A stretch of DNA of 55,012 bases. Source: an uncultured Gammaproteobacteria bacterium. GTDB taxonomy: Bacteria; Patescibacteriota; Microgenomatia; Levybacterales; GWA1-39-11. Every line of letters begins with the position of its first letter. The first letter of the stretch is position 1. Location: contig CAYHUY010000003.1 in assembly GCA_964360265.1 (NCBI GenBank), positions 1 to 55,012 of the forward strand, read 5' to 3'. The position numbers and the translations under genes are program-made. Positions 11,645 to 55,012 of the stretch are shown here, in pieces. Below the pieces are notes generated by a model. That model ran no database searches and had not been told where the DNA came from. It saw nothing but the letters and a program-made list of their open reading frames with translations.

Positions 11645-12586
11645 CTACCTGGGGGGTAGGGAGCTCTGGTCGTAAGCCTGTTTGGCTGCATCTGCGCACG
11701 CCGCCGGCCATGACCAAGAGGTTCCACCACCCATGAGAGGAGCGTTGTTCCCGGGAGACAGGAGGATCTTGCGTTCCTGCTGGTCTTGTCCGGGTTCGTT
11801 GGTCCAGAAATTGACCACTCGCCACTCACCCGTAGGGACCCATCCCTGACCGACAACCGGTTCGCGAGTCTCCTTAACGCCAATGTCGCAATTGACCGAT
11901 CCCGCAGCAGATCCCTGAGCGGGTTGTTGTGCCGGAGCCGCCGCCGCCATTTGTGGGATCGGAATTTCGAATCCGCTCTCGCCCTTACGCATGGCTGCCG
12001 AGTGGATTGCCAAAAGCGACATGATGTCGTCCTGGCTCAGGTTCCGCAGGTTCGCCACGACCGTTGGAGGGTTGCTCCTGAGATCGATGACGAGTCCCGA
12101 GTGGCCGCTGTCGAGGCGAGCTTCCGCGTATGCGGTTGCGTCCGTAGTCCAGTTAAAACTGGCGCATTCGGGCGTGTCGCCTTCCCAAAGGCTGCCGTAG
12201 CCCCAGGCTATGTCGGGCACGCCGTCCGGATTGGCGATTTTGTCGATGATGTAGCTCACCGCGTAGATCCTAGCCGGCTGGTACTGAGGGTAGAAGTCCA
12301 GGTGTTGTCCACCATGGCCTCCAACCTCAATTCGGTGCGGGTTATTGCCCTCGCTCCATGTGCCGACCTTGTCAAGCCTGCAGGCGTCGCCTGACCCGTT
12401 TGCGAACGGGTTCTGTATGCCTGCGTCTAGCACGCCGGACGTCGCCGTTGCCGTGGGTGTCGCGGTTTGCTGTGCCGTCGTCGTTTTCACGCCGTCGTCG
12501 TCGAGAGCAAGGACAACAAGGCCGATCAGGGATCCGACCAGAATGACGGCCACGCTTGCTCCTAAGCTCCATCTAAGTAGATTCAT
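11645..12586 (-). CDS. hypothetical N-terminally anchored/secreted protein (313 aa, island gene)
   Basis: N-terminal TM ASVAVILVGSLIGLVVLAL, a Thr/Ala/Pro linker, then a Cys- and Trp-containing globular region. A strong SD (AAGGAGG) lies 6 nt before the ATG. I recognise no motif. Confidence 0.7.
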   Translation of the reverse strand: MNLLRWSLGASVAVILVGSLIGLVVLALDDDGVKTTTAQQTATPTATATSGVLDAGIQNPFANGSGDACRLDKVGTWSEGNNPHRIEVGGHGGQHLDFYPQYQPARIYAVSYIIDKIANPDGVPDIAWGYGSLWEGDTPECASFNWTTDATAYAEARLDSGHSGLVIDLRSNPPTVVANLRNLSQDDIMSLLAIHSAAMRKGESGFEIPIPQMAAAAPAQQPAQGSAAGSVNCDIGVKETREPVVGQGWVPTGEWRVVNFWTNEPGQDQQERKILLSPGNNAPLMGGGTSWSWPAACADAAKQAYDQSSLPPR

Positions 12587-12687
12587 TGTCTGCCTCCTTT
12601 AAGGCTTGAACTGAACGCTCCGCAAGATTCCATTAGGAATCTCAACGTGCATGCCTACCGATGTTTATCTCGATCGGATCACCTCTT

Positions 12688-13701
12688 TTACGGTGCCTGC
12701 TGCTTTCCGCCGAGTATGGTCGCGGGGTCGATGATGATCCCTTGACCGCTTGGCAGAAACGCGATCTGGACATTATCCGCCAGCTTCTGAAGCGCCTGGA
12801 ACTGGATCAAGAGAGGTGTGAGACTCTCGTTGATGAGCCGGTTGGCGTCTGCCTGACCCTGCGCCTCCGTACGCAGTCTCTCGGCTTCACCTTTTGCGGT
12901 CTCGACCCTCTGTTCGGCCTGGTTCTTGAAGAGCTCGATCTTGTTCTCCTCGGTGATGGCGTTCTGCTCTGCAATCACCTTGTCCTGAATCGCTTTTGCG
13001 TATTCAGGGTCGAAGGACAAGTTGTAGATACCGATCTTGGTAACGGTGATCGCATAACCTGCGTCGTCCAGAACTTGCTGCATCCGAGTCCGCACGGACT
13101 CTCGAAGTGCCTCTCGGTTTTGAGCGATTACCGTGCTGTCGTAGTCTGTCGTCTCTTCCTTCAGAATGTTGGGAAGCTCTGTTACGAACAGCTTGCCGAA
13201 GTAGTCCGGGCCGACGTTGTCCAGGATGTTCTCGACTGCTTCCCGGTCGACCTTGATGTTGATGGTGACATCCATGTAGACGTCTTGGTTGTCGTCACTG
13301 AATGTTTCCATCCGACCGGCGCGGAAATGTACACCTGAGAAGTCAGCGTCCTCGCGGTGTTCCGGTGCAACCCAGCCGAACGATTGCTCTCGTACATCCT
13401 GGCTCTTCACTTCCTGCCAAGGCGCCGTTACGACGAGTCCGCTCCCGGTGGTACCCGTCACAGCCTTGAATGTGTAGATGGCTCCGACGTGTCCGTTGGG
13501 TACCTGATGGAACATTGACGCCAAGGTGAAGATGAGCCAGAGCACGATAGCAAAGACCGAACCGCCCCATCGCAAAAGAGATCCAGCTTCTTCGGCTTCA
13601 GATTGCTCCTTCCGTCCTACTGAGCGGACCAATGTCCCAACCACGATAACGACGGGTATGACCACTACGAACATGGTGATCGAGAATATTATCCAACCCA
13701 C
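12688..13701 (-). CDS. SPFH / band-7 (prohibitin-like) membrane protein
   Basis: N-terminal TM, a PHB-type core (GHVGAIYTF...VTAPWQEVKSQDVREQ...VYMDVTINIKVD...), then a coiled-coil tail (IAEQNAITEENKIELFKNQAEQRVETAKGEAERLRTEAQGQADA). GTG start with an AGGA upstream. Confidence 0.85.
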   Translation of the reverse strand: MGWIIFSITMFVVVIPVVIVVGTLVRSVGRKEQSEAEEAGSLLRWGGSVFAIVLWLIFTLASMFHQVPNGHVGAIYTFKAVTGTTGSGLVVTAPWQEVKSQDVREQSFGWVAPEHREDADFSGVHFRAGRMETFSDDNQDVYMDVTINIKVDREAVENILDNVGPDYFGKLFVTELPNILKEETTDYDSTVIAQNREALRESVRTRMQQVLDDAGYAITVTKIGIYNLSFDPEYAKAIQDKVIAEQNAITEENKIELFKNQAEQRVETAKGEAERLRTEAQGQADANRLINESLTPLLIQFQALQKLADNVQIAFLPSGQGIIIDPATILGGKQQAP

Positions 13702-21041: not shown

Positions 21042-24000
21042 TTAATTCACTATTATCCAGTTGAATTTAATGTCTGTTGTAGTTGATGGAATATTTATGC
21101 CGACCGTAAATGAACCTTCCGCCCCCGCCTGCAAAGGATCTTCCGCTGTCTGTCTCAAAAGATATAAAACCCTACCATTTGTATTCCCAACAGGCGTTAT
21201 ATAGATCAATGAGTTTTCGGTAACATTTTGATTCTTGATGGTAATCTCACCTCTATATTGTTTTACGATCGCCGCTCCGGCTGATCCAGAAGCCACGGCT
21301 TCGATATCAGAAATGGCGAGAGCCTGCCTGGCTAGCGATAGATTTAATTTATTGAATGTACCGGAACCCGAAGCAACAAGTGCACCCCTAACATCAACTA
21401 ACGTGTCATCGTAAATCCCGTCCGCGGCGCTTGTTGCGGTCCCAGATTTGATAATAAGATTTTGGTTAGGTAGAGGAGAAATTATGTTCGCAGAAAGTGT
21501 CCCTCTAATGCTTACGTTGGAGGCAAATTCTGCGCTATTCAAAACCTTAAGCGTTCCATCTGTTTCAATCCTTACGTACCCTGCCATAAATGATATCGAG
21601 CCTTGTTTAAGCGGTTGAATTTCAAGAGTTTCGGAAAGTGTATTAATCGAATTCGGTCCGATCAGAAGCGTGGTGCCAACAGACATGCTATCAAGAGCAG
21701 TTATTTGATTAAATGTTGCAGGACCAAAAGCTATCAAACCCGATCGTATTGTAGCAAAATCTGCCGAAAGATTTTTTATGTCTAAGAAATCAAATTCTCC
21801 GCCTAAACTTGACACGTTATACGTGTTGCTTGATATTGATCCCGCAGCAATACTGGCGATCTTGGCTTCCAGTCCATCAATCGAATTAGCTTGGATCCGA
21901 TCAGCGTACAATGTTCCTGAAATTGTAGCCTGGTTAGCACTCAAATTATCGGTTGCTAATTCTCCCGATATTGAGGCACCGTTCGAACTCAAAATACCAG
22001 AGAACGTGGCCCGCCTCGCTTCGAGATCTCCGGCGAAGCGGGCATTCCCGGTATTATCAATTGATGCAACAACAGCTGAATCGCTAGCGCTCGAATTTTT
22101 AATTTCCAGTTTCGAATTTGCAAGATCAATAGCAATGTTCGATCCATCCGCAAGAGGAGATATGATATTGGTTCGGATTTGATCAATTGAGGCAAGAGGA
22201 GAAACAATAGATTCGCCAGTATTGAGTATTGAGTATTCAGTATTCAGTATAATTGCAACAGTAGATGCGATATAGTCGGAAAGACTTTGTCCTGCAATAG
22301 TTACAGAATCCGTAGCGACATTAAGACTAGATGCAAAAACATTACCTGCGTTTATCACTCCAAGAGTAAGGCTCTCAAGTTCTCCGGCGATACTTTTATG
22401 ATATGTGGAGCTATCTATATATACTATAATTTTTCCGATGCCATTTGCGTTGTAGTCTGCAAGCGCAAAGCCCGCTATTTTACCAGATCTGGTTGCTTTC
22501 ATACCAACACCTGGGATTGATGAGGACGTTATAGGATCGCCGATTTGAATCGGACCATTCTCAACTGAAACCTTAAGATGCACGCGGCCGGATAACGCCA
22601 CCGCGCGAGGATTTTTGGCGTAATCGTATATGTCCCTTCCAAAAGTTTGATAAGGACTCGATGAAACTATACCTATTATATTATTTTGATACGGTTCAGT
22701 TGATTCGGTCAGGATCGCAATTTGAGATTCAACTTTGCCCGCTAGTTCTCCGCTTTCCGGATTGGTTTTTTGGGCCATATAGGTTATCTTATTATTTGTC
22801 GCAACAAGAATTTCCGCTTCTTGTGCTCCGGCGGTTGTTTCATACCATTCGGCGATATCTGCAGGTGCACCCGAGCATGCGACAATATCACGATCAGCAA
22901 ATGTTCCATCGGAGTTTGCGCCCGAGTGACAGAGGCCGTTAGTTGTTGCAGGTTCGTTGGCATCTAATCTGATGTCGCCATTGACTTCCAATTCTTGACC
23001 TGGCACACTCACGCCAATTCCAACTTTTCCGCTTCCTCCTAAAGCGCTTAGAATAATATTTCCTGTACTTGTTCCTCCTATGGTAAGAGTATTATTATTG
23101 AGAGACTGTATTGTTGCAGTTGATGCATTAAGCGATAGTCCGTTGCTATTTATAGTAGCAAATATGGAAACCATTGGATTACCATTGCCAACTCCTGTTA
23201 TCGCAAATTCAGCACTTGCGGTTGCCCGTGAACCAATCAAGAGATCCATAGTGGAGTTATTAGAAAATAACGTTCCTGATCCCTGACCCCAAGCTAAATC
23301 ACAAGTGCCCCACAAGGGGTTTCTATCCCCCGAGAGAAGACAAAGTGATGGAGCGGAAGTGATTGCTTGACTAAGTATACCCGTGCCATTAGAGCCGTAT
23401 AAAACCCCATTTTTTTCTGTAAAGGCCGGTAATATTATCTCTTGACCCAACCGACCCAGAGAGAGAGTTGTTGCCAACGTACCTCCAATGCTCAGAGTTC
23501 CGGTTGAAATAGTGTCAAGCAAAGCTCCTGCTGCAAAACTTATGTCGCCATCGTTTGCTATTACGAAACGATTCGTGCCCGATGATGAAGCTGTGAAAAT
23601 ATCCCCACCAGTTGTATCGTTATTGATAACAAAAGCCGCGACGGCTGATTCTGTTGCAAGCACACTCATCTTATCATTAATCTCAACAGAACCGGGGGCG
23701 AGATTTCCAGTTGCGCTCGTATTAACTAATGGTTTTTCAATATTTATTCTGCCAATTCCATCTGGAATAATATTAATATCCCCATCAGAACTGTCTTCGG
23801 TTGCAAGGACTAAGGTTTTTCCGGAAATCTTAAATCGCCCACCGGTTGCGGCAAAAGTGGGATTAGCAGACCCTGCAAAAGTTAAATTGCCGGATGAATC
23901 AAGAGCCAAAATAACATTTTTACCTTTGGGAGAATCTGTAATAGGCAACATTCCCTGAAGAGTTTCGGAATTTTTGGCATAGGACACAGAAGGGAGTTTC

Positions 24001-25553
24001 TCGCGGGGCGCAAGTTCTGGCGTCTGCCCAATTGTTATACCAAGATATAGGGAGTCATAGTCGCGAAATATAGTTGCCGGCATACTATTCTTACTGCCGA
24101 GTAGTACAGAAAACTCACCGTTTTCGTCTGGAATTATACTTTGCCGTACTTCCTGCCAAAGAAGAGCGGATCCTGAGGCAGTCTCGCCGTTATAGATAGC
24201 AAATCTTAAATCAGCTTCGCTTGTGATTGGTTTATCATTATTGTCAATAAGCGTTCCATGAAATGAAAGTATTCTTGATACGGCTGTGGGTAAGGCGGAT
24301 GCTATTTGTTTACGTGCTTCAGGGAAAAGACCCGAATAAACAACGAAACCTAAAGCTGAAGCATAAATCACAAGGATGGTAAAATGAAAATAGTGCACGA
24401 TTGAATAACTATGATATCTTTTGTACCATTTTGGTCTTGTATACTTAGCATGATGTATTATTTTTTTTTGCCAGGAAAGGCCAACTAAGGAAATTTCATT
24501 GGGGGCATACATTGCCTTTGGAATATTAGACACGGGAGCAAAGAGGCTCTGGTTCAGTTTTGATGCATTTTGGCGCAGCCGTCCATACGGTACCCGGCGG
24601 AGACGACTATTATTAATTGAACGGGCGATATAAGAGGCGATCGAATCTTCAAGACTAAAATATGGCACTAGCAGTTTCTGTAGTAGTCTGATAGGAGGAA
24701 TCCGGGAGTGCCTTGAGTCTTGGATCTTACTTGCTCGGTCTTGGATTTGTTTAAAATCCCCAAGACTTAATCCCTTTTTTAAAACTGCCTGCCCACCAAT
24801 GCTAGACGTTTGCAGGCGGGGAAATTGGTCCGCCAGCCGGCGAATGAAAATTGGAAATTGTTCCAGGTGGCCTTGTGCCTGCGCAAACCGCAGATATTTT
24901 CTTATTGAGGATAATTTTCTATTAATGCTTCTAGGAGAAAGGTTAAGAATTGATATAAGGCTTTCTTTATAGTTATCAATAGCCACATTAGTAATTAGTT
25001 TGATATAGTCTTTTACGTTTACTCCCGCAGGTTGATCCGCCAGCTGGCGGATTCGGCTTTCTTTAATCCAGGAAGTAAATGCTCTTATGTCTGCAAGATA
25101 ATTTTTGATTGTAGATTTTGATCCACCATAAATATACAAATAGTCCTTAAACTCTTTTAAAAACCAGGGGTCAAAATCCTTATTGGAGATTTCCGACTCG
25201 CGATTGATGATTTCAAAAGGATTTTGAGAAATAAGTCCTTCTCCGGCTATAAATTCGGCGAATTTACGAAGCGTAGAGAGGTAGCGCTCAAATGAACGAG
25301 CGGGAGAAGGATTAACGATTGACGACCTGCCTGCCGGCGAGGCAGGTTCATGATTAACAATTTGGCCGCCTTGGGTTTTTGTGAAAAGGGTTACAACCTC
25401 TGCTGTTAAATCAGATGGCTGAAATGTTGTTGAAAAAGAGAATTCAAACCAAGAGAGGAAGCGGCGCAAATCAGAAACATAATTCTTAGCGGTCAAGGAT
25501 GATACCTTCCCGCGTATTAGGAGATAATTTCTAAATAATTCCAGCAATGGCAT
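21042..25553 (-). CDS. giant single-pass surface protein with a cytoplasmic N-terminus of recombinase core-binding (SAM-like) type repeats
   Basis: 1503-aa ORF. The N-terminal ~380 aa carry three modules resembling the tyrosine-recombinase N-terminal domain (LTAKNYVSDLRRFLSWF; STIKNYLADIRAFTSWI; RSINRKLSSIRKYLRFA), with no catalytic domain. One TM follows (IVHYFHFTILVIYASALGFVVYSGLF), then ~1100 aa of Gly/Thr/Ser/Asn-rich beta-type repeats. It is paralogous to the ORF at 53734. Confidence 0.85.
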   Translation of the reverse strand: MPLLELFRNYLLIRGKVSSLTAKNYVSDLRRFLSWFEFSFSTTFQPSDLTAEVVTLFTKTQGGQIVNHEPASPAGRSSIVNPSPARSFERYLSTLRKFAEFIAGEGLISQNPFEIINRESEISNKDFDPWFLKEFKDYLYIYGGSKSTIKNYLADIRAFTSWIKESRIRQLADQPAGVNVKDYIKLITNVAIDNYKESLISILNLSPRSINRKLSSIRKYLRFAQAQGHLEQFPIFIRRLADQFPRLQTSSIGGQAVLKKGLSLGDFKQIQDRASKIQDSRHSRIPPIRLLQKLLVPYFSLEDSIASYIARSINNSRLRRVPYGRLRQNASKLNQSLFAPVSNIPKAMYAPNEISLVGLSWQKKIIHHAKYTRPKWYKRYHSYSIVHYFHFTILVIYASALGFVVYSGLFPEARKQIASALPTAVSRILSFHGTLIDNNDKPITSEADLRFAIYNGETASGSALLWQEVRQSIIPDENGEFSVLLGSKNSMPATIFRDYDSLYLGITIGQTPELAPREKLPSVSYAKNSETLQGMLPITDSPKGKNVILALDSSGNLTFAGSANPTFAATGGRFKISGKTLVLATEDSSDGDINIIPDGIGRINIEKPLVNTSATGNLAPGSVEINDKMSVLATESAVAAFVINNDTTGGDIFTASSSGTNRFVIANDGDISFAAGALLDTISTGTLSIGGTLATTLSLGRLGQEIILPAFTEKNGVLYGSNGTGILSQAITSAPSLCLLSGDRNPLWGTCDLAWGQGSGTLFSNNSTMDLLIGSRATASAEFAITGVGNGNPMVSIFATINSNGLSLNASTATIQSLNNNTLTIGGTSTGNIILSALGGSGKVGIGVSVPGQELEVNGDIRLDANEPATTNGLCHSGANSDGTFADRDIVACSGAPADIAEWYETTAGAQEAEILVATNNKITYMAQKTNPESGELAGKVESQIAILTESTEPYQNNIIGIVSSSPYQTFGRDIYDYAKNPRAVALSGRVHLKVSVENGPIQIGDPITSSSIPGVGMKATRSGKIAGFALADYNANGIGKIIVYIDSSTYHKSIAGELESLTLGVINAGNVFASSLNVATDSVTIAGQSLSDYIASTVAIILNTEYSILNTGESIVSPLASIDQIRTNIISPLADGSNIAIDLANSKLEIKNSSASDSAVVASIDNTGNARFAGDLEARRATFSGILSSNGASISGELATDNLSANQATISGTLYADRIQANSIDGLEAKIASIAAGSISSNTYNVSSLGGEFDFLDIKNLSADFATIRSGLIAFGPATFNQITALDSMSVGTTLLIGPNSINTLSETLEIQPLKQGSISFMAGYVRIETDGTLKVLNSAEFASNVSIRGTLSANIISPLPNQNLIIKSGTATSAADGIYDDTLVDVRGALVASGSGTFNKLNLSLARQALAISDIEAVASGSAGAAIVKQYRGEITIKNQNVTENSLIYITPVGNTNGRVLYLLRQTAEDPLQAGAEGSFTVGINIPSTTTDIKFNWIIVN
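22218..22250. repeat. heptanucleotide tandem repeat (AGTATTG)x2 (AGTATTC)x2 plus a partial copy
   Basis: Read directly. It encodes NTEYSILNTG inside the giant ORF. Related TACTTAATACT-type units occur in the spacers at 27250-27315, 29070-29100 and 38293-38330. Confidence 0.85.
24788..24821. repeat. inverted-orientation copy of the CCCGCCTGCA...GCGGGCAGG palindrome family
   Basis: cctgcccaccaatgctagacgtttgcaggcgggg. It is translated here as PRLQTSSIGGQA in the cytoplasmic part of the giant ORF. Confidence 0.75.
25037..25050. repeat. perfect 14-bp palindrome CCGCCAGCTGGCGG (encodes RQLADQ); a related copy lies at 24830-24842 (RRLADQ)
   Basis: Self-complementary as read, and the peptide motif LADQ occurs twice. 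Confidence 0.8.
25326..25346. repeat. CCTGCCTGCCGGCGAGGCAGG palindrome inserted in-frame, flanked by an 11-bp direct repeat
   Basis: GATTAACGATT (25310-25320) and GATTAACAATT (25352-25362) are 42 nt, or 14 codons, apart. The protein shows IVN...IVN duplicated around HEPASPAGRSS. Confidence 0.8.
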
Positions 25554-46317: not shown

Positions 46318-46591
46318 AGGACGGAATCTATATAGGATATTGACTTTCGGCACGACACCTAGGTATACTTTTCATGCTCTTAAGTAATGTTGTAGGTGAC
46401 TTGTTTTCCTCTACAACTTTTCCGATAAGGTATCGGCTCACAAAGAGCTGAAAAGGGATGTTTTTAAATTGACCCCGTGGGGTCAAATTAGCATCTTCCT
46501 AATTTTAAGTCGGGGAAGCGTTTCCTACAATTGCTTAAGGGCGGCTTTATCAGGTAGATATTAGGGGCTAGATACTAGAAAATAGGGAGTG

Positions 46592-46664
46592 AGCCGACTC
46601 AGGGATTCGAACCCTGGACCTACGCTTTACGAAAGCGCCGCTCTACCAACTGAGCTAAGTCGGC
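46592..46664 (-). tRNA. tRNA-Thr (anticodon CGT)
   Basis: Hand-folded cloverleaf: acceptor GCCGACT/AGTCGGC, D arm GCTC-AGTTGGTA-GAGC, anticodon arm GCGCT-TTCGTAA-AGCGT, variable AGGTC, T arm CAGGG-TTCGAAT-CCCTG, discriminator T. No CCA is encoded. Confidence 0.9.
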
Positions 46665-47100: not shown

Positions 47101-47101
47101 G

Positions 47102-47173
47102 AGCCGAAGGAGGGATTCGAACCCTCGACTTGCTGTTTACAAAACAGCTACTCTACCACTGAGTTACTTCGGC
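47102..47173 (-). tRNA. tRNA-Thr (anticodon TGT)
   Basis: Hand-folded cloverleaf: acceptor GCCGAAG/CTTCGGC, D arm ACTC-AGTGGTA-GAGT, anticodon arm GCTGT-TTTGTAA-ACAGC, variable AAGTC, T arm GAGGG-TTCGAAT-CCCTC, discriminator T. Confidence 0.9.
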
Positions 47174-47405: not shown

Positions 47406-47702
47406 TTATTTAGTCTTGATAATCCCTTTTTCTCCGCCAAAACCTACATAAACATTTACTTTATTTTCAATTGCCTTAAGAACTCCCTGTGTTATTTTGA
47501 GTTCCTCCTGTCCGTTGAATTTAATAATCCTAATAAAGTCTTTTATGACCGATATAAAATTCTCGTGTAGGGGCAGAATATCAAAAATACCCCTCTCATT
47601 AATAGAAGTTAAAGCCGCGGCTTCTCCTTCAAAAAGTACACCATCCTTATTTTTAATTACTACGTATATAGACCTGTCTTTGTTTTTTTGATTGTTTCTC
47701 AT
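47406..47702 (-). CDS. atpC: F1 ATP synthase epsilon subunit, short form (beta-sandwich only)
   Basis: 98-aa ORF directly after atpD. FEGEAAALTSINERGIFDILPLHENFISVI fits the epsilon N-terminal domain. There is no C-terminal helical hairpin. Confidence 0.7.
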   Translation of the reverse strand: MRNNQKNKDRSIYVVIKNKDGVLFEGEAAALTSINERGIFDILPLHENFISVIKDFIRIIKFNGQEELKITQGVLKAIENKVNVYVGFGGEKGIIKTK

Positions 47703-47724: not shown

Positions 47725-49964
<2,240 letters not shown>

Positions 49965-49969
49965 AGCTT

Positions 49970-51448
49970 TTAACTTATTGCTGTGCTTTTACCAGGATTA
50001 TTCTTGGGTTGAATTTTCCTTATTTTTCCAAGCAGCTCATTTATGTGAGAAGAGGTTGCAATTATATTGTCAACACTTGCGTGAAAACTCTTGTCCGTCT
50101 CGTATAGCAAAGTTAATTTTTCCATGTCTTCTTTTATTTTTTCAAAACTATCATCTTTCCAATAATCCCCCCAGATCATACTAAAAAGAAAGACTTGTAT
50201 ATTCTCCGCCGCTATAGTGCTTGGGGCTTGTTGAAAGAATCGAGTGATCCTGTCTCCTGTCTTAATGATTGTTTTTATCCCCTCATTTACTTCTTCTCCA
50301 AAGTGAATATAGCGCTGACTTTTGTTGTATAGAGTAAGAAAGGCCCTTAGTTCCCGCGCGATGCTTCTTTTGAGAGTAGACTGAGTTTGCTGGCCAACCC
50401 TTGTTACTGAAAGAAAGGGGTTTATAGCGGGGCGTCTGCCTTGGGAGAAAAGATCTGAGTCAAAATAAAGATGGCCATCTGTCATTGACATGAGGTTTGT
50501 CTGAATATATCCTGATAAATCTCCCTGTGCTGTCTCAGCAATGGGTAGCACCGTAATTGAGCTCTCGCCTGACCCTATTGCAAAATTGCCTGCCCTCTCC
50601 AGAAGCCGTGCGTGTATATAAAAAATATCGGCAGGGTAGGAATTTCTACCCGGAAAGCGACGGCCAAGTAGCGCGAGTTCTCGATAGAATTTTGCGTGCG
50701 TTGATAAATCGTCAATTACCAGCAAGGTATCAATGCCGTGATCACGAAAATACTCAGCAATTGTCATAGCAGAGTAGGGCGTCATAAAGATTGTGCCCAC
50801 GGGATCGCGCGATGTAGTCGTAACAATTATTATCTTATCAAGTACCTTATTTTTGGCAAATAATTCCTCGATTCTCTTAATGTCGATCTTGCGCTTGCCA
50901 ACCATTGCATAAATGCAAATGTTTCCTTTTTTGGCTTGAGAAAGAATAGCCTGGAGCAGAAAATTAGTCTTGCCGGTTTTGCGGTCTCCAATCAAGAGTT
51001 CGCGTTGTCCGTGTCCTAGCGGAATAAGAAGGTCAACAATTGAAACACCGGTGGCAAAATGCCTTTTGATAGTTTTTCTTGAAACGATGCCCTGTGGAGC
51101 AATCTGGATTTGACGCACTTCTTTTGGTTTTTTTTGACGGCGCGTGGGGTCAAATGAGTTCCCAAATGGATCAACAATCCCGCCTAAAAGTTCCGCGCCT
51201 ACTGGAATCTCAAAATATTTACCCGTTCTTGTAATTTGTAACCCAACACGAACTGGCGAATTTGTGAAAGTGAGTATCTCAACATGATTTTCAGATAAAG
51301 ATAATACTTGTCCCACTTCACCCGACTCAAATATCATGAGTTCTTCAGGCATGGCTCCGGGTAAACCGTTGGCGTAAACTATTGGGCCAACAACTTGCTC
51401 AACATAACCAATCTCTTTTGTTTGCTTAAGATATTGATCGAAATTCAT
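49970..51448 (-). CDS. atpA: F1 ATP synthase alpha subunit
   Basis: Walker A GDRKTGKT, LLVIDDLSTHAKFYRELALLGRRFPGR, and the SGYIQTNLMSMTDGHLYF blocks. Confidence 0.95.
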   Translation of the reverse strand: MNFDQYLKQTKEIGYVEQVVGPIVYANGLPGAMPEELMIFESGEVGQVLSLSENHVEILTFTNSPVRVGLQITRTGKYFEIPVGAELLGGIVDPFGNSFDPTRRQKKPKEVRQIQIAPQGIVSRKTIKRHFATGVSIVDLLIPLGHGQRELLIGDRKTGKTNFLLQAILSQAKKGNICIYAMVGKRKIDIKRIEELFAKNKVLDKIIIVTTTSRDPVGTIFMTPYSAMTIAEYFRDHGIDTLLVIDDLSTHAKFYRELALLGRRFPGRNSYPADIFYIHARLLERAGNFAIGSGESSITVLPIAETAQGDLSGYIQTNLMSMTDGHLYFDSDLFSQGRRPAINPFLSVTRVGQQTQSTLKRSIARELRAFLTLYNKSQRYIHFGEEVNEGIKTIIKTGDRITRFFQQAPSTIAAENIQVFLFSMIWGDYWKDDSFEKIKEDMEKLTLLYETDKSFHASVDNIIATSSHINELLGKIRKIQPKNNPGKSTAIS

Positions 51449-51927
51449 ATTGATTTAAATATTTCTTCGCGCTTTGTCTTAAATACCTCCTCAAGCTTTG
51501 TTTTGAGACTATAGTCACGATACAGGCCATTAAAAACTATAATTGCCCCTCCAAGAATGCTTGGCTCGACATTTATTTCAATGATTATATTTTCCGCAAG
51601 AAGCTGCCGGGCAAAGGCTGATATTTTATCGATTGTTGACTGCTGCGCTTCAAAGGCAAGAGTCAGAGTTATAGCTTGTAAGCCCTCGGCTTTATTTTTA
51701 ATTTCGGCAAGATTCTTTGCGATTTTTTCTCTTAGGGCCTCATCGAGAGGTTTACCCTGAAGAAGGCCCAGAATATAGGCTCTAAGCTGCGGCGAAACTT
51801 TTGTATCAAGTATTTTTTCAAGATCGGCTTGCTGCCGAAAAAGTACGTCGAGAACAAGCGAAATTTCCAAATATAATTGTTTTCTTTCTTCCAGGGTTTT
51901 TATTGACGAAAGCGAATAGCCATTCAT
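51445..51927 (-). CDS. atpH: F1 ATP synthase delta (OSCP) subunit
   Basis: 160-aa ORF whose C-terminal IEINVEPSILGGAIIVFNGLYRDYSLKTKLEEV is the delta signature. It overlaps its neighbours by 4 nt at both ends. Confidence 0.8.
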   Translation of the reverse strand: MNGYSLSSIKTLEERKQLYLEISLVLDVLFRQQADLEKILDTKVSPQLRAYILGLLQGKPLDEALREKIAKNLAEIKNKAEGLQAITLTLAFEAQQSTIDKISAFARQLLAENIIIEINVEPSILGGAIIVFNGLYRDYSLKTKLEEVFKTKREEIFKSI

Positions 51928-52685
51928 TTTGATTCCCCGCCTGCAACGCTTTGCCAGCCCGCAGAGCTACGCTCAGCATTGCTGGCGGGCGTAGCATTGC
52001 GGGCAGGTTGATTTTCAACAGCTTCTTTCAGCGCCTCCAGGATAAGGTCTTCGTGTTTATCAAGATCAATAGACTTTCCTATCGCAAGTTGAACAGCATT
52101 TTCAGTTATTTTATAAATATTATCTTGAATTTTTTGAATTTCCTGTTTTTTGTAATCTTCAACTTCGTTCGACGTATCAGCGTACAACTTATCAATTTTC
52201 TCCCCGACAATTTTTTGGGATTCAAGAGTCTCTCTTCTTAAAATATTTTTAAAGTCTTTTATTTCCAAAGTTGCTTGTACTTCTATATCTTTTGATATAC
52301 TCTTAAACATATTGATATACTCTTTGAGCAGTTCGTCAAATGCACGGCTGTATTCTATCCTTAATCCTTCAGAAGTTTTTTGAAGTTCTTCTTTTTGAAT
52401 GCTTTGAAGAGTATTGGATATTTCAGAGGATACATCCGATGCCTGTTCTTGAAAAAGTTTAGTTTCAGCAACTGCCTGTCGGGCCTGAACACTCGCGGCC
52501 ATTATTATTTCATGAGCCTTTTGTCTCGCCTGATTGAGCATAGTTTCACTAGATCTAAGTGCATCTTTATTATGCAAACTAATTCTTTTAAGAGCATTTA
52601 AGTAATAGCCTGCCAACAATATGACAGTTCCCGAGAGAACCAGGATGGAAAAAATAAGAGCGTAAAGTAGTAATGATTCAGTCAT
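51924..52685 (-). CDS. atpF: Fo ATP synthase b subunit, elongated (253 aa)
   Basis: Single N-terminal TM (LLLYALIFSILVLSGTVILLAGYY) followed by a long charged coiled coil. The last ~28 aa are encoded by a GC-rich palindromic element. Confidence 0.7.
   Translation of the reverse strand: MTESLLLYALIFSILVLSGTVILLAGYYLNALKRISLHNKDALRSSETMLNQARQKAHEIIMAASVQARQAVAETKLFQEQASDVSSEISNTLQSIQKEELQKTSEGLRIEYSRAFDELLKEYINMFKSISKDIEVQATLEIKDFKNILRRETLESQKIVGEKIDKLYADTSNEVEDYKKQEIQKIQDNIYKITENAVQLAIGKSIDLDKHEDLILEALKEAVENQPARNATPASNAERSSAGWQSVAGGESK
51935..52007. repeat. composite (nested) copy of the CCCGCCTGCAACGC...GCATTGCGGGCAGG palindrome forming the 3' end of atpF
   Basis: It encodes QPARNATPASNAERSSAGWQSVAGGESK* in the same frame (PARNA...SVAGG) as the copy at 6964-6999. 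TTGATT occurs on both flanks (51929-51934 and 52008-52013). Confidence 0.85.
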
Positions 52686-53509
52686 AATGCTAATATCAAA
52701 TAGCCAATAGCAAGGCCTGCAAGCACTATTCCAATTGTTAGAACAACATTCATCAGAACACTGACCTGAATAAAAACTCCCGCCAATGGATTTCTGCCCA
52801 AGGCTTCAATACCAGTTTTTACAATTCTTCCAAAATGAATAAATCCTAATATGAATGAGGTAACTACAACAAATGCCGCAAGTATATATCTGAAAGTGGT
52901 GAGTGGGGTAAGGAACGGTGAGCTAATTACATTTTTAAGGTTTTCAACAAGATTGGTTCTGGTTGCGATAAATGTGGCATTGAAGTGGGGGTTAATATAG
53001 ACTAATATTTTTCCAACAGATTTAGAATCGCTTGCGCTATAATCTTCAAGCGATGTTCCTAAGACAAAGCCATTTGCCGTAGATTTAGCTGCAACACCCC
53101 TGATCTCACTTGAGGTTAAAAAGTCGTTCTTTTTGATTACGCCATTTATTGTTGATACACGCACATATGCCTTCCCGCTTATTAAAACCGGATAGGTATT
53201 TTGTAGATTTGCATCACCGTTCTCCAGGAATAATGCCGGTGTGCTTGTTATAACGCCATAAGTTGATGGTTGGTAAGCATAAGTAGCAAGCTTATATCCT
53301 TGGTCGGTTGATGCTATGACGTCTCCGTCGAGGACGTTCTTGTCAATAATTGGAATAGAAATTGCAATACCTGTTCCAGTCAAAGCGTTTGGTTCCTGGG
53401 CTGCAGCAGGAAGCACTAAGCAAAAAACGAGTATTGTTCCCAAAAAAAATTTTCCAATCGAATTCACAGCAAAAGAGCTTCGAATGGATTCAAAGTCAAG
53501 GTTTATCAT
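52682..53509 (-). CDS. signal-peptide protein with a ~170-aa extracytoplasmic domain fused to an ATP-synthase-c-like helical hairpin that lacks the carboxylate
   Basis: It is the first gene of the atp operon, with an ATGA overlap with atpF. The C-terminus is FRYILAAFVVVTSFILGFIHFG-RIVKTGIEALGRNPLAG-VFIQVSVLMNVVLTIGIVLAGLAIGYLILAL. The loop resembles the c-subunit R(Q/N)P loop, and helix 2 has no Asp or Glu. Confidence 0.7.
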   Translation of the reverse strand: MINLDFESIRSSFAVNSIGKFFLGTILVFCLVLPAAAQEPNALTGTGIAISIPIIDKNVLDGDVIASTDQGYKLATYAYQPSTYGVITSTPALFLENGDANLQNTYPVLISGKAYVRVSTINGVIKKNDFLTSSEIRGVAAKSTANGFVLGTSLEDYSASDSKSVGKILVYINPHFNATFIATRTNLVENLKNVISSPFLTPLTTFRYILAAFVVVTSFILGFIHFGRIVKTGIEALGRNPLAGVFIQVSVLMNVVLTIGIVLAGLAIGYLILAL

Positions 53510-53556: not shown

Positions 53557-53586
53557 ATCATACTTGTACAGAGTTGGACATGTCAA
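53557..53586 (-). promoter_or_regulatory. candidate atp operon promoter TTGACA, 18-nt spacer, TATGAT
   Basis: -35 at 53586-53581 and -10 at 53562-53557 on the minus strand, 47 nt upstream of the start at 53509. Confidence 0.5.
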
Positions 53587-53733
53587 TAGATTAAAGCATG
53601 GACAAAGTTACCCAAAATGAGGACAAAAGTTGGACATTAGTCCCTTGACATTTTTCACAGAGTGTGTCTTACTCTTATTATAGCGATTTTGATTGACCCC
53701 GATTTAATCGGGGTTGAACAAATTTAATGCCCA

Positions 53734-55012
53734 ATGCAAGATAAACTCCTGACAATTCAGGAGGCAGGAAAACTTTTAGGGGTCTCCACCAAGACTCTTA
53801 GGCGTTGGGAGGCTCGCGGAATTCTAACTCCTCAAAGAACAGCCGGAAATCAACGAAGGTATATTAAGTCTCAAATAGAGAATTTCAAACTCCAACAAAA
53901 GTTTGGTATTAATACAGAGTTTAATCCTACGCCCTCAGGGCAAATTTTTCAGGGTGAATCACCAACCGCCCTAGGCGCTCAGCATAAGCTGGCCCGCATA
54001 AGTTGGGGAGTTCGCGGAATAAAGAAGGGAATATTTATCCTGTCCGTGAGTTCTTTGGGAGTATTGGTGGGAATAGCAGGCGTGTTTGCCTTAGGTAAGG
54101 CAACGGATTTATTTGATAATAACAAGCTTGCAGGCCTGTACCCACGCGCCCTTCCAACTCTCAATGAAAGCTATAAACAGGTGTTGGCAGCAGGAACAGA
54201 AGGCTTGAATCCAACGCTCCTCGTTAACATTCCAAGTAACTTTTTTGAGGGTATTGAGGCTCAAAGGGTGGCAACCTTATCAGGTGGAATTATAACGGAG
54301 GGTGCTGATATAGACGCAGCGGAGGGATCAGTGTTTGCCTCAAATCTTCTTTATGGAGTAGCCTCAGGGTCTGGCATATTGATTGGCATAGGGCAGACTC
54401 CAACTATATCGAACAATGGTGTACTAACACTAAATAATACAATCGGAGAATTGACACTTAAAGGTTCGGGCGCAACAAGCATCTCTACGTCTGATAAAAC
54501 CATCACCATTTCCTCAACAACAAATGATGGTGATATTACGGGAGTGACGGCTGGGACAGGGCTTTCAGGCGGCGGAACCTCCGGTAGTGTCACTCTTACA
54601 AACGCTGGAGTAACAAGTCTCACCGGAACTTCGAATCAAGTAAATATTTCTGCTTCAACAGGCAGCATTACTTTATCACTCCCTCAAAGCATAGGTACAG
54701 GTTCATCCCCGACTTTTTCAGGCCTAACATTATCGTCATTCACATCAAACGGTGGCCCACTATATACAAACGCATCAGGGACACTTGCCCAAGTAACTGC
54801 AGGAACAAGTTCGCAGTGTCTTTTGGGTGGCACCACCCCCTCTTTTGGTTCCTGCGGCGCAGGTGAAACCTCTGATACTTTCTGGAATCAATCATCGGGA
54901 GCATTGTTTGCCAATAATTCTACAGTTGATCTCTTGATTGGAGCACAGGCTTCATCATCTGCCGAGTTTGCAATTACCGGCATAAATGATGGCACACCTA
55001 CGGCATCTATCT
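53734..55012 (+). CDS. giant surface protein (5' partial in this window) with an N-terminal MerR/excisionase-type HTH, one TM and an extracytoplasmic repeat region
   Basis: It is absent from the ORF track because it runs off the window. I translated 53734 to the end with no stop. The sequence is MQDKLLTIQEAGKLLGVSTKTLRRWEARGILTPQRTAGNQRRY (HTH), a TM GIFILSVSSLGVLVGIAGVFALG, then ITGVTAGTGLSGGGTSGSVTLTN-type repeats. The stretch LFANNSTVDLLIGAQASSSAEFAITG matches LFSNNSTMDLLIGSRATASAEFAITG of the 1503-aa protein. Confidence 0.8.
   Translation, partial: MQDKLLTIQEAGKLLGVSTKTLRRWEARGILTPQRTAGNQRRYIKSQIENFKLQQKFGINTEFNPTPSGQIFQGESPTALGAQHKLARISWGVRGIKKGIFILSVSSLGVLVGIAGVFALGKATDLFDNNKLAGLYPRALPTLNESYKQVLAAGTEGLNPTLLVNIPSNFFEGIEAQRVATLSGGIITEGADIDAAEGSVFASNLLYGVASGSGILIGIGQTPTISNNGVLTLNNTIGELTLKGSGATSISTSDKTITISSTTNDGDITGVTAGTGLSGGGTSGSVTLTNAGVTSLTGTSNQVNISASTGSITLSLPQSIGTGSSPTFSGLTLSSFTSNGGPLYTNASGTLAQVTAGTSSQCLLGGTTPSFGSCGAGETSDTFWNQSSGALFANNSTVDLLIGAQASSSAEFAITGINDGTPTASI

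Follow-up and report, generated by a model that had tools for sequence, protein, structure and literature searches.

An F1 ATPase operon headed by a carboxylate-free, subunit c-like hairpin fused to an exported beta-barrel domain in Levybacteria and related Patescibacteria

The DNA described here is a 55,012-nucleotide stretch (contig CAYHUY010000003.1, assembly GCA_964360265.1; the whole of it is hereafter called the window) which carries, towards one end and on the minus strand, an operon for an F1-type ATPase. The first gene of this operon (52682..53509) is a fusion gene of 275 amino acids (aa) that, according to open reading frame (ORF) calling, comparison with relatives and AlphaFold2 (AF2) modelling, encodes three parts: (i) a signal peptide; (ii) an exported beta-barrel; and (iii) a membrane hairpin resembling subunit c, the ring-forming protein of ATP synthases. 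The gene order is fusion-b-delta-alpha-gamma-beta-epsilon, and all coordinates of the operon refer to the minus strand. The fusion gene is followed by a b-like peripheral-stalk gene (51924..52685; 253 aa, with one N-terminal transmembrane (TM) helix and then a long helix), assigned from a weak PF00430 match (E 0.021) and from its position ahead of delta. Then come delta/OSCP (51445..51927; PF00213, E 9e-12), F1 alpha (49970..51448; PF00006, E 1.5e-64), a very divergent F1 gamma (49089..49964; PF00231, E 1e-21), F1 beta (47725..49101), which is a bona fide F-type catalytic subunit by its best PDB match (2e-116), and a short epsilon (47406..47702; PF02823) of 98 aa, a beta-sandwich without the C-terminal helical domain.

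The stop codon of the fusion gene overlaps the start codon of the b-like gene in an ATGA tetranucleotide (52682..52685). Because the gene further upstream is divergent, the fusion gene is taken as the first of the operon. A sigma-70-like promoter match (TTGACA-18 nt-TATGAT, 11/12; 53557..53586, minus strand), which is a consensus match only, scores best within 47-54 kb and lies 48 nt 5' of the fusion ATG, consistent with the fusion gene heading the operon.

Hydropathy analysis of the fusion protein delineates three hydrophobic segments (residues 18-36, 209-227 and 255-273). Its N-terminus, MINLDFESIRSSFAVNSIGKFFLGTILVFCLVLPAAA/QEP, has an A-x-A type signal-peptidase site after A37, and the h-region of relatives ends in A-x-A/Q-type sites; cleavage is a prediction from sequence. 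The AF2 model, built with 35 homologues (mean predicted local distance difference test score, pLDDT, of 82), consists of a signal helix, a beta domain at residues 47-177 (pLDDT mostly >90), a floppy linker, and helices at residues 198-239 and 243-274. Taken together, the following parts can be differentiated: (i) the signal peptide, residues 1-37 (53399..53509), with its predicted signal peptidase I site AAA/QEP placed from sequence and hydropathy; (ii) the exported beta-barrel domain, residues ~44-178 (~135 aa; 52976..53380), from pLDDT >90 and Foldseek; (iii) a low-confidence linker with a short helix, residues 179-197 (52919..52975; pLDDT 53-59); (iv) hairpin helix 1, residues 198-239 (52793..52918), which by AF2 and alignment has neither an acidic residue nor the GxGxGxG motif; (v) the cytoplasmic loop G233-I-E-A-L-G-R-N-P-L-A243 (52781..52813), aligned as the equivalent of the R-Q/N-P loop of subunit c, in which 8 positions show zero entropy among 279 sequences; and (vi) hairpin helix 2, residues 243-275 (52685..52783), with I259 in the carboxylate column of the alignments. 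The protein ends exactly at the membrane edge. Since a signal peptide is present, the N-terminal domain is placed outside, and the topology predicted from AF2 and the signal peptide is a helical hairpin with both termini outside and the RNP loop inside.

An earlier, sequence-only reading of this DNA had described the same ORF (52682..53509, minus strand, 275 aa) at the head of the atp operon, with a signal peptide, an exported domain, a C-terminal hairpin and translational coupling to an atpF-like gene, and each of these elements was recovered by sequence, hydropathy or AF2. The peptides that it quoted (...FCLVLPAAA/QEP, IVKTGIEALGRNPLA and VFIQVSVLMNVVLTIGIVLAGLAIGYLILAL) are all found in the ORF. 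The fusion ORF is a genuine conserved gene, with 327 relatives at E<=1e-3 in a 90%-clustered database and, by exhaustive search of a 1.84-billion-protein library in 50%-identity clusters, 482 at E<1e-30 and 3104 at E<1e-10. Its closest relatives are labelled Candidatus Levybacteria (Microgenomates, Candidate Phyla Radiation (CPR)/Patescibacteria).

The window fusion protein has no match in Pfam, NCBIfam (E<=1) or PHROGs. When a profile of its family is searched against all PDB sequences, six matches are obtained at E<10, and every one is an F-type c subunit whose alignment spans both helices and the loop; 2wie_A, from the c15 ring of Spirulina, comes first (E 0.027), and 4bem is also among them. 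The Pfam family of subunit c, PF00137, is matched by two of 35 relatives (best E 0.0018, below the curated family threshold), and the JGI pipeline names two fusion relatives 'subunit c'. Residues 196-275 align by hhalign with a template of ten c-subunit sequences over 69 columns (score 30.3, probability 77%); the reversed template scores 15.3 (1.7%) and 30 column-shuffled templates at most 15.6 (1.9%). Foldseek superposes the hairpin on the c subunits of Chloroflexus, Bacillus PS3, chloroplasts, mycobacteria and yeast with a root-mean-square deviation of 1.4-2.0 Å, target-normalised TM scores of 0.7-0.86 and 18-27% identity. Both sequence alignments share one register: E235, R239, N240 and P241 fall on the E-x-x-x-R-Q/N-P loop of subunit c, I259 fills the carboxylate column, and G265 aligns with the conserved c-subunit Gly six residues past the carboxylate. 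The resemblance to subunit c is beyond chance. Hence the relationship that the sequence-only reading had proposed for the loop and hairpin finds a weak but specific signal in the PDB profile search, hhalign and Foldseek, all of which point to subunit c; on these comparisons, the hairpin is best described as a remote homologue of c that falls outside the family as currently defined.

Conservation was assessed on 279 unique relatives, which were aligned on the loop Pro (P0) and counted position by position (effective number of sequences, Neff, about 160 for entropy). Asp or Glu occurs in 0/279 relatives at P+10..P+34 and in a single one at P+9, and both residues are absent from helix 1 between -33 and -14. 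The carboxylate column itself (P+18) holds I, V, L or A. A further 53 loop-variant members have no D/E beyond +9, with two carrying it at +9, so that the missing carboxylate, first pointed out for helix 2 of the window protein, is a family-wide trait (279 + 53 sequences). Polar residues are nonetheless conserved: P+13 (N254) is Asn in 258, His in 18 and Ser in 3 of the 279; P+7, near the membrane, is Gln in 193 and Glu in 32; and Thr is common at P+17. In helix 1, Gly residues stand at -19, -14 and -8 from the loop Pro, and the conserved small residues at -30, -23, -19 and -14 do not alternate; the positional tally thus bears out that the helix has no GxGxGxG motif. Judged from these alignments, both the ion-binding carboxylate and the GxGxGxG packing motif have been lost from the c-like hairpin. 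On the other hand, the cytoplasmic loop G-x-E-A-x-G-R-N-P-L-A is essentially invariant: entropy is zero at G-8, E-6, A-5, G-3, R-2, N-1, P0, I+6 and G+24, and all proteins among the 279 terminate exactly at P+34. The conservation periodicity of the two hairpin helices gave no discrimination between a ring and a monomer.

Among GTDB species representatives, 233 genomes were found to carry a relative (at least 233 at the species level), and 80 loci were fetched with flanks of ±10 kb; layout counts use the 72 of these whose downstream DNA extends for 3.5 kb or more. These loci come from Levy-, Gottesman-, Woese-, Ames-, Roizman- and Shapirobacteria, WWE3 and unclassified Patescibacteria. The F1 genes stand directly after the fusion gene in 69/72 species loci. 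Four layouts can be distinguished: (i) fusion followed by b-like/delta, alpha, gamma, beta and epsilon (63/72); (ii) fusion leading straight to alpha-gamma-beta-epsilon, with no b or delta (6/72); (iii) fusion followed by gamma-epsilon only (1/72, locus L083); and (iv) no ATPase genes downstream (2/72, one of them L080). Upstream neighbours vary by lineage (a Fic-like gene, a giant surface gene with a MerR-type helix-turn-helix (HTH), and others), so that linkage is conserved with the F1 genes alone. The sequence-only reading had asked whether the fusion always precedes atpF, and had named a gene unlinked to atp genes in relatives as a contrary outcome; the survey finds b-like/delta after the fusion in 63/72 loci, and linkage to F1 genes holds in 69/72. 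Altogether, the gene orders compared show a fusion-F1 synteny that is both tight and ancient.

The departures from the common layout deserve description. The loci without b-like/delta (L033, L041, L044, L045, L047 and L066) have no peripheral stalk genes and keep their catalytic motifs intact; in L044, a GIY-YIG-like ORF is inserted ahead of alpha. The fusion-gamma-epsilon contig (L083 689-2675) has no alpha or beta and looks like a remnant of 'rotor' genes. In the Woesebacteria locus L080 (2540-3301), which has no ATPase genes within 10 kb downstream, the loop is degenerate (TVENIARNPSV vs GVEALGRNPLA); P0211 is listed alongside this copy. The WWE3 locus L075 has no adjacent ATPase genes either, and there the loop is kept and a C-terminal extension is present. 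A gene for 2,3-bisphosphoglycerate-independent phosphoglycerate mutase (~565 aa) lies between the fusion and the b-like gene in L040, L049, L051 and L052. Immediately upstream of the fusion gene, and on the same strand, 23 Levybacteria-type loci carry a Fic-domain/HTH gene (~313 aa), which in L001 (9049-10038) overlaps the fusion gene start. Long fusion variants (P0217, P0259 and others) replace the signal peptide by a cytoplasmic HTH and one additional TM helix, and keep the same operon layout.

The F1 portion looks catalytically competent and functional, as far as motifs can tell. Beta is much closer to canonical bacterial F1 beta (the PDB match given above) than to the beta of the Mycoplasma G1-ATPase (1.4e-78). 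Across the operons, the beta P-loop is kept in 60/61 and the catalytic Glu of the GER motif in 61/61; the alpha Arg finger is found in 69/69, and the alpha P-loop is conserved. These motifs are also intact in the operons that have no b/delta. The remaining subunits are more divergent: the best PDB match of gamma reaches only 1e-4, epsilon, again without the C-terminal helical domain, has a median of 89 aa in relatives, and the b-like protein has no detectable relative in the PDB.

No canonical c gene was found in the window, where a c hidden Markov model (HMM) made from ten c-subunit sequences was run on six-frame ORFs of >=50 aa and returned the fusion itself as best match (E 0.39), nor in the ~80 flanks of ±10 kb. 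As for subunit a, a motif expression combined with a count of TM helices gave no multi-TM ORF with the a-type R..N motif in the flanks of these loci, and in no locus does a multi-TM gene lie directly upstream of the fusion. The sequence-only reading had allowed for a canonical atpB-atpE pair elsewhere; none appears in the window or these flanks. The multi-TM proteins of the window are, by Pfam, BacA, ComEC, an M50 protease and a TPR membrane protein, and its two small membrane proteins have no a-like Arg or other a-like features. In the flanks, judged by eye, the multi-TM ORFs resemble an M50-type protease (HExxH), a PAP2-like phosphatase, and DUF1295-like and EamA-like proteins, and two are similar to the unassigned 202-aa membrane protein of the window. 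Clustering of flank ORFs for a conserved extra neighbour that might be a hidden stator gave only the Fic-like gene (23 loci), GalT, glycogen synthase and antisense artefacts, and no conserved polar residue was found in the TM helix of the b-like protein among relatives. The flanks showed no second ATPase operon; an additional 'alpha' match in L067 is Rho.

For the exported domain, the structure search suggested by the sequence-only reading led, through Foldseek, to PDB entries 8pkh, 8hdt_G, 7kmx_a and 3suc (E 2.5e-5 to 6e-3), which include capsid decoration or cement proteins (Borrelia phage BB1, cyanophage Pam3, XM1 gp53, TW1) and the phi29 gp12 appendage. In BFVD, the domain finds phage proteins of the 'preneck appendage protein barrel' and tail-fibre kinds, with E down to 1e-12 and 20-25% identity, and PF23982 is weakly matched by 9/35 relatives (best 0.0017; the window protein stays below significance). 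The fold resembles that of phage decoration and appendage barrels (PF23982 XM1_gp53; DUF2190-like), whereas the fusion domain occurs in a cellular, membrane-anchored context. The same beta domain recurs in the window within a 1503-aa protein (21042..25553, minus strand; residues 954-1052, E 1e-19), whose N-terminal part contains phage-integrase SAM-like domains (residues ~87-228). Giant ORFs with this beta domain adjoin the ATPase operon in L024, L059, L069 and L082.

Other features of the window and of the assemblies can be described briefly. Two tRNA-Thr genes (anticodons CGT and TGT; 46591-46664 and 47101-47173, minus strand) lie just 3' of epsilon on the same strand. The divergent gene upstream of the fusion (53728-55012, plus strand) runs past the window end and encodes a MerR-type HTH followed by a membrane-spanning, repeat-rich surface protein; its relatives range from 720 to >3000 aa, and the architecture of HTH, TM helix and large extracellular part is common to it and the long fusion variants. 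It was considered as an operon partner and set aside, being directly upstream of the fusion in only 6/69 loci, and it is not used as evidence. Elsewhere lies a GC-rich island (11645-13701; 55.6% vs ~40% in the rest) whose AT skew is strongly negative. It codes for a membrane protein of SPFH/band-7-like type and for a secreted protein, Rfam yields neither rRNA nor any other match within it, and it may have been acquired horizontally. Finally, many metagenome-assembled genome (MAG) TPA assemblies that carry the operon are labelled 'uncultured Gammaproteobacteria', 'Pseudomonadales' or 'Saccharibacteria', which look like taxonomic mislabels.

The best reading of these data is that the fusion gene supplies all that can be recognised of the membrane sector in an F1 ATPase of Microgenomates/WWE3 type. 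More specifically, it is rather probable that the fusion is a c-derived, ion-blind base for F1 which replaces both a and c. According to this proposal, the fusion protein would be exported and its signal peptide cleaved, with the hairpin N-out/C-out and the loop in the cytoplasm; the hairpins would then homo-oligomerise into a c-ring-like body whose invariant GxEAxGRNPLA loop binds the gamma/epsilon foot. A role for the R-Q-P loop of subunit c in F1 binding is known. The loop is proposed to hold the foot because of that role, because the one remnant locus retains the fusion with gamma and epsilon, and because the loop has decayed in the Woesebacteria locus devoid of ATPase genes. Lacking both the carboxylate and an a subunit, the assembly could not use the known Fo mechanism to move H+ or Na+; it would, therefore, be no chemiosmotic synthase or pump but an 'F1-X0' machine that hydrolyses ATP. 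Probably, then, the 'ATP synthase' of this operon does not pump or use ions in the known way. The complex would act as a membrane-anchored ATPase in which ATP hydrolysis turns or twists gamma/epsilon, the hairpin assembly and an external beta-barrel crown relative to alpha3beta3, the latter being tethered to the membrane by the b/delta stalk in most lineages. Candidates for the useful output are mechanical work on surface structures, gating, or mere anchoring.

Several points weigh against this proposal. Six lineages do without b/delta altogether, so that resistance to torque is hard to explain and a classical rotary work cycle is uncertain. The TM helix of the b-like protein (residues 5-23) shows little conservation among relatives and lacks an evident partner. 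At the sequence level, the likeness to c is weak; neither Pfam nor NCBIfam gives a match for the window protein, and any TM hairpin superposes well on subunit c. For ring formation and the gamma/epsilon contact, the support is indirect, coming from loop conservation and synteny. An unconventional polar site might still exist, given the conserved Asn/His at P+13 and Gln/Glu at P+7. In addition, the search for a and c covered the window and the ±10 kb flanks, and a canonical atpB-atpE pair might lie elsewhere in the genome.

A bolder extension, for which we see some chance and no great one, is that the machine is an ATP-driven mechanical transducer: F1 would turn or twist the carboxylate-free c-like ring, and the motion would cross the membrane to a surface crown of phage-fibre-like beta-barrels. 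This crown might engage the giant surface proteins that share the beta domain, with possible uses in attachment, surface movement or host interaction by episymbiotic bacteria. If so, the system would be a c-ring-based counterpart of the F1-like gliding motor of Mycoplasma mobile, and the Microgenomates/WWE3 'F-type ATP synthase' would neither make ATP from an ion gradient nor build one.

A little more doubtful is the explanation that the fusion is an accessory to an ordinary F1Fo whose a and c are encoded elsewhere, be it as assembly factor, periplasmic ring cap, or minor or regulatory protomer of the c-ring. The fusion occupies the first place of the operon, which in many atp operons belongs to AtpI, and the search for a and c was bounded by the flanks. 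Moreover, hairpins without the acid can sit in a rotor ring, as in the duplicated proteolipids of V/A-type ATPases and in c1 of Acetobacterium woodii (4bem is among the PDB matches); in those rings, however, the carboxylate persists in other hairpins and there is a subunit a/I, whereas the fusion family is wholly carboxylate-free. Since atpB and atpE almost always adjoin atpF, their absence from the window and from ~80 flanks speaks against an accessory, as do the conservation of an 11-residue loop beyond what a cap or chaperone would call for, and the retention of the fusion with gamma-epsilon alone in the remnant locus. An analysis of a WWE3 genome likewise found no recognisable a or c (PMC3812714). 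On balance, the data favour a rotor-like F1 anchor over an accessory to a normal Fo.

Less probable again is a rotor that still translocates ions through a non-carboxylate polar site (Asn/His at P+13, Thr at P+17, Gln/Glu at P+7), with an unrecognised stator in place of a. The near-fixed Asn at N254, replaced mostly by His, and the frequent Q/E at P+7 and T at P+17 would suit such a site, and the b/delta genes kept in 63/72 loci suggest that torque still matters. Nevertheless, every F/V/A rotor ring characterised to our knowledge uses Glu or Asp, no conserved multi-TM gene adjoins the operon, the b-like TM helix offers no conserved polar residue, and six lineages dispense with b/delta. Very improbable, lastly, is a merely convergent likeness, in which a surface beta-barrel protein with a generic two-helix anchor happens to be co-transcribed with F1 genes: the window protein does lack a direct Pfam or NCBIfam match and the beta domain does occur in giant surface proteins without the hairpin, but the PDB profile search yields c subunits only, in register from the loop to the Gly six past the carboxylate column, the hhalign controls score far lower, and F1 synteny is near-universal across divergent lineages with differing upstream neighbours.

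Set beside AtpE (PF00137), the c-derived base proposed here shares the two-helix hairpin, the outside termini, the polar loop E-x-x-x-R-[QN]-P and the Gly six past the carboxylate column, as well as its place directly upstream of a b-like gene in an otherwise canonical b-delta-alpha-gamma-beta-epsilon order. It differs in having no helix 2 Glu/Asp, no helix 1 GxGxGxG, no partner a and no Pfam-level detection, and in being a 275-aa protein with a signal peptide and a ~135-aa exported beta-barrel. The N-ATPases (atpDCQRBEFAG, with AtpQ/AtpR, no delta and a Na+-type c) are also distinct, given that the fusion operon has another order and contains delta/OSCP. In function, an analogy can be drawn with the F1-like 'X0' ATPases of mycoplasmas (Type 2/3; the gliding motor of M. 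mobile; G1-ATPase), in which alpha/beta/gamma/epsilon are clustered with non-Fo membrane proteins and which have been proposed or shown to spend ATP on work other than ion transport (PMC3369863, PMC11864180). The membrane sector of the fusion operon has neither a nor the c carboxylate but is derived from c, and the likeness is one of function, by analogy. In mycoplasmas, though, these clusters are extra paralogues beside a genuine F1Fo and their membrane partners are unlike Fo subunits, whereas the fusion operon is seemingly the only ATPase operon, usually keeps b/delta, has a beta nearer to canonical F1 and a membrane partner that derives from c. The fusion operon is not a member of that group.

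Regarding earlier reports, Kantor et al. (2013, mBio, PMC3812714) stated of their reconstructed WWE3 genome that its a, b and c 'lack significant homology', and likened a putative c to a TM protein encoded in the ATPase operons of OP11 and WWE3. That protein belongs very probably to the same family as the fusion protein, since both are TM proteins of WWE3/OP11 ATPase operons and WWE3 and Microgenomates loci carry the fusion family. The mention takes one sentence, which reports neither homology to c nor the missing carboxylate, the exported phage-like domain or the missing a candidate, and the paper leaves open whether protons or sodium are pumped. This 2013 remark is the sole mention found in the literature, where no paper was found on the c homology of this protein, its missing carboxylate, its phage-like exported domain or its clade-wide spread.

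According to reviews up to 2024-2026, an F-type ATP synthase is retained by nearly all Patescibacteria, and the debate is whether it synthesises ATP or works in reverse as a proton pump. One complete Microgenomates genome has no membrane ATP synthase at all (PMC7143001), and the membrane ATPase is hence dispensable in this group. The premise of an ordinary complex V looks unsupported for a whole clade comprising Levybacteria, other Microgenomates and WWE3 (at least 233 species-level genomes). If the proposed c-derived base is correct, it would be a mistake to score 'complex V present' in metabolic reconstructions of these organisms, which would instead possess a natural, strongly conserved F1 motor mounted on a c-derived, ion-blind base with an extracellular domain. 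It would also open a way of testing what a rotary ATPase does once it is no longer chemiosmotic.

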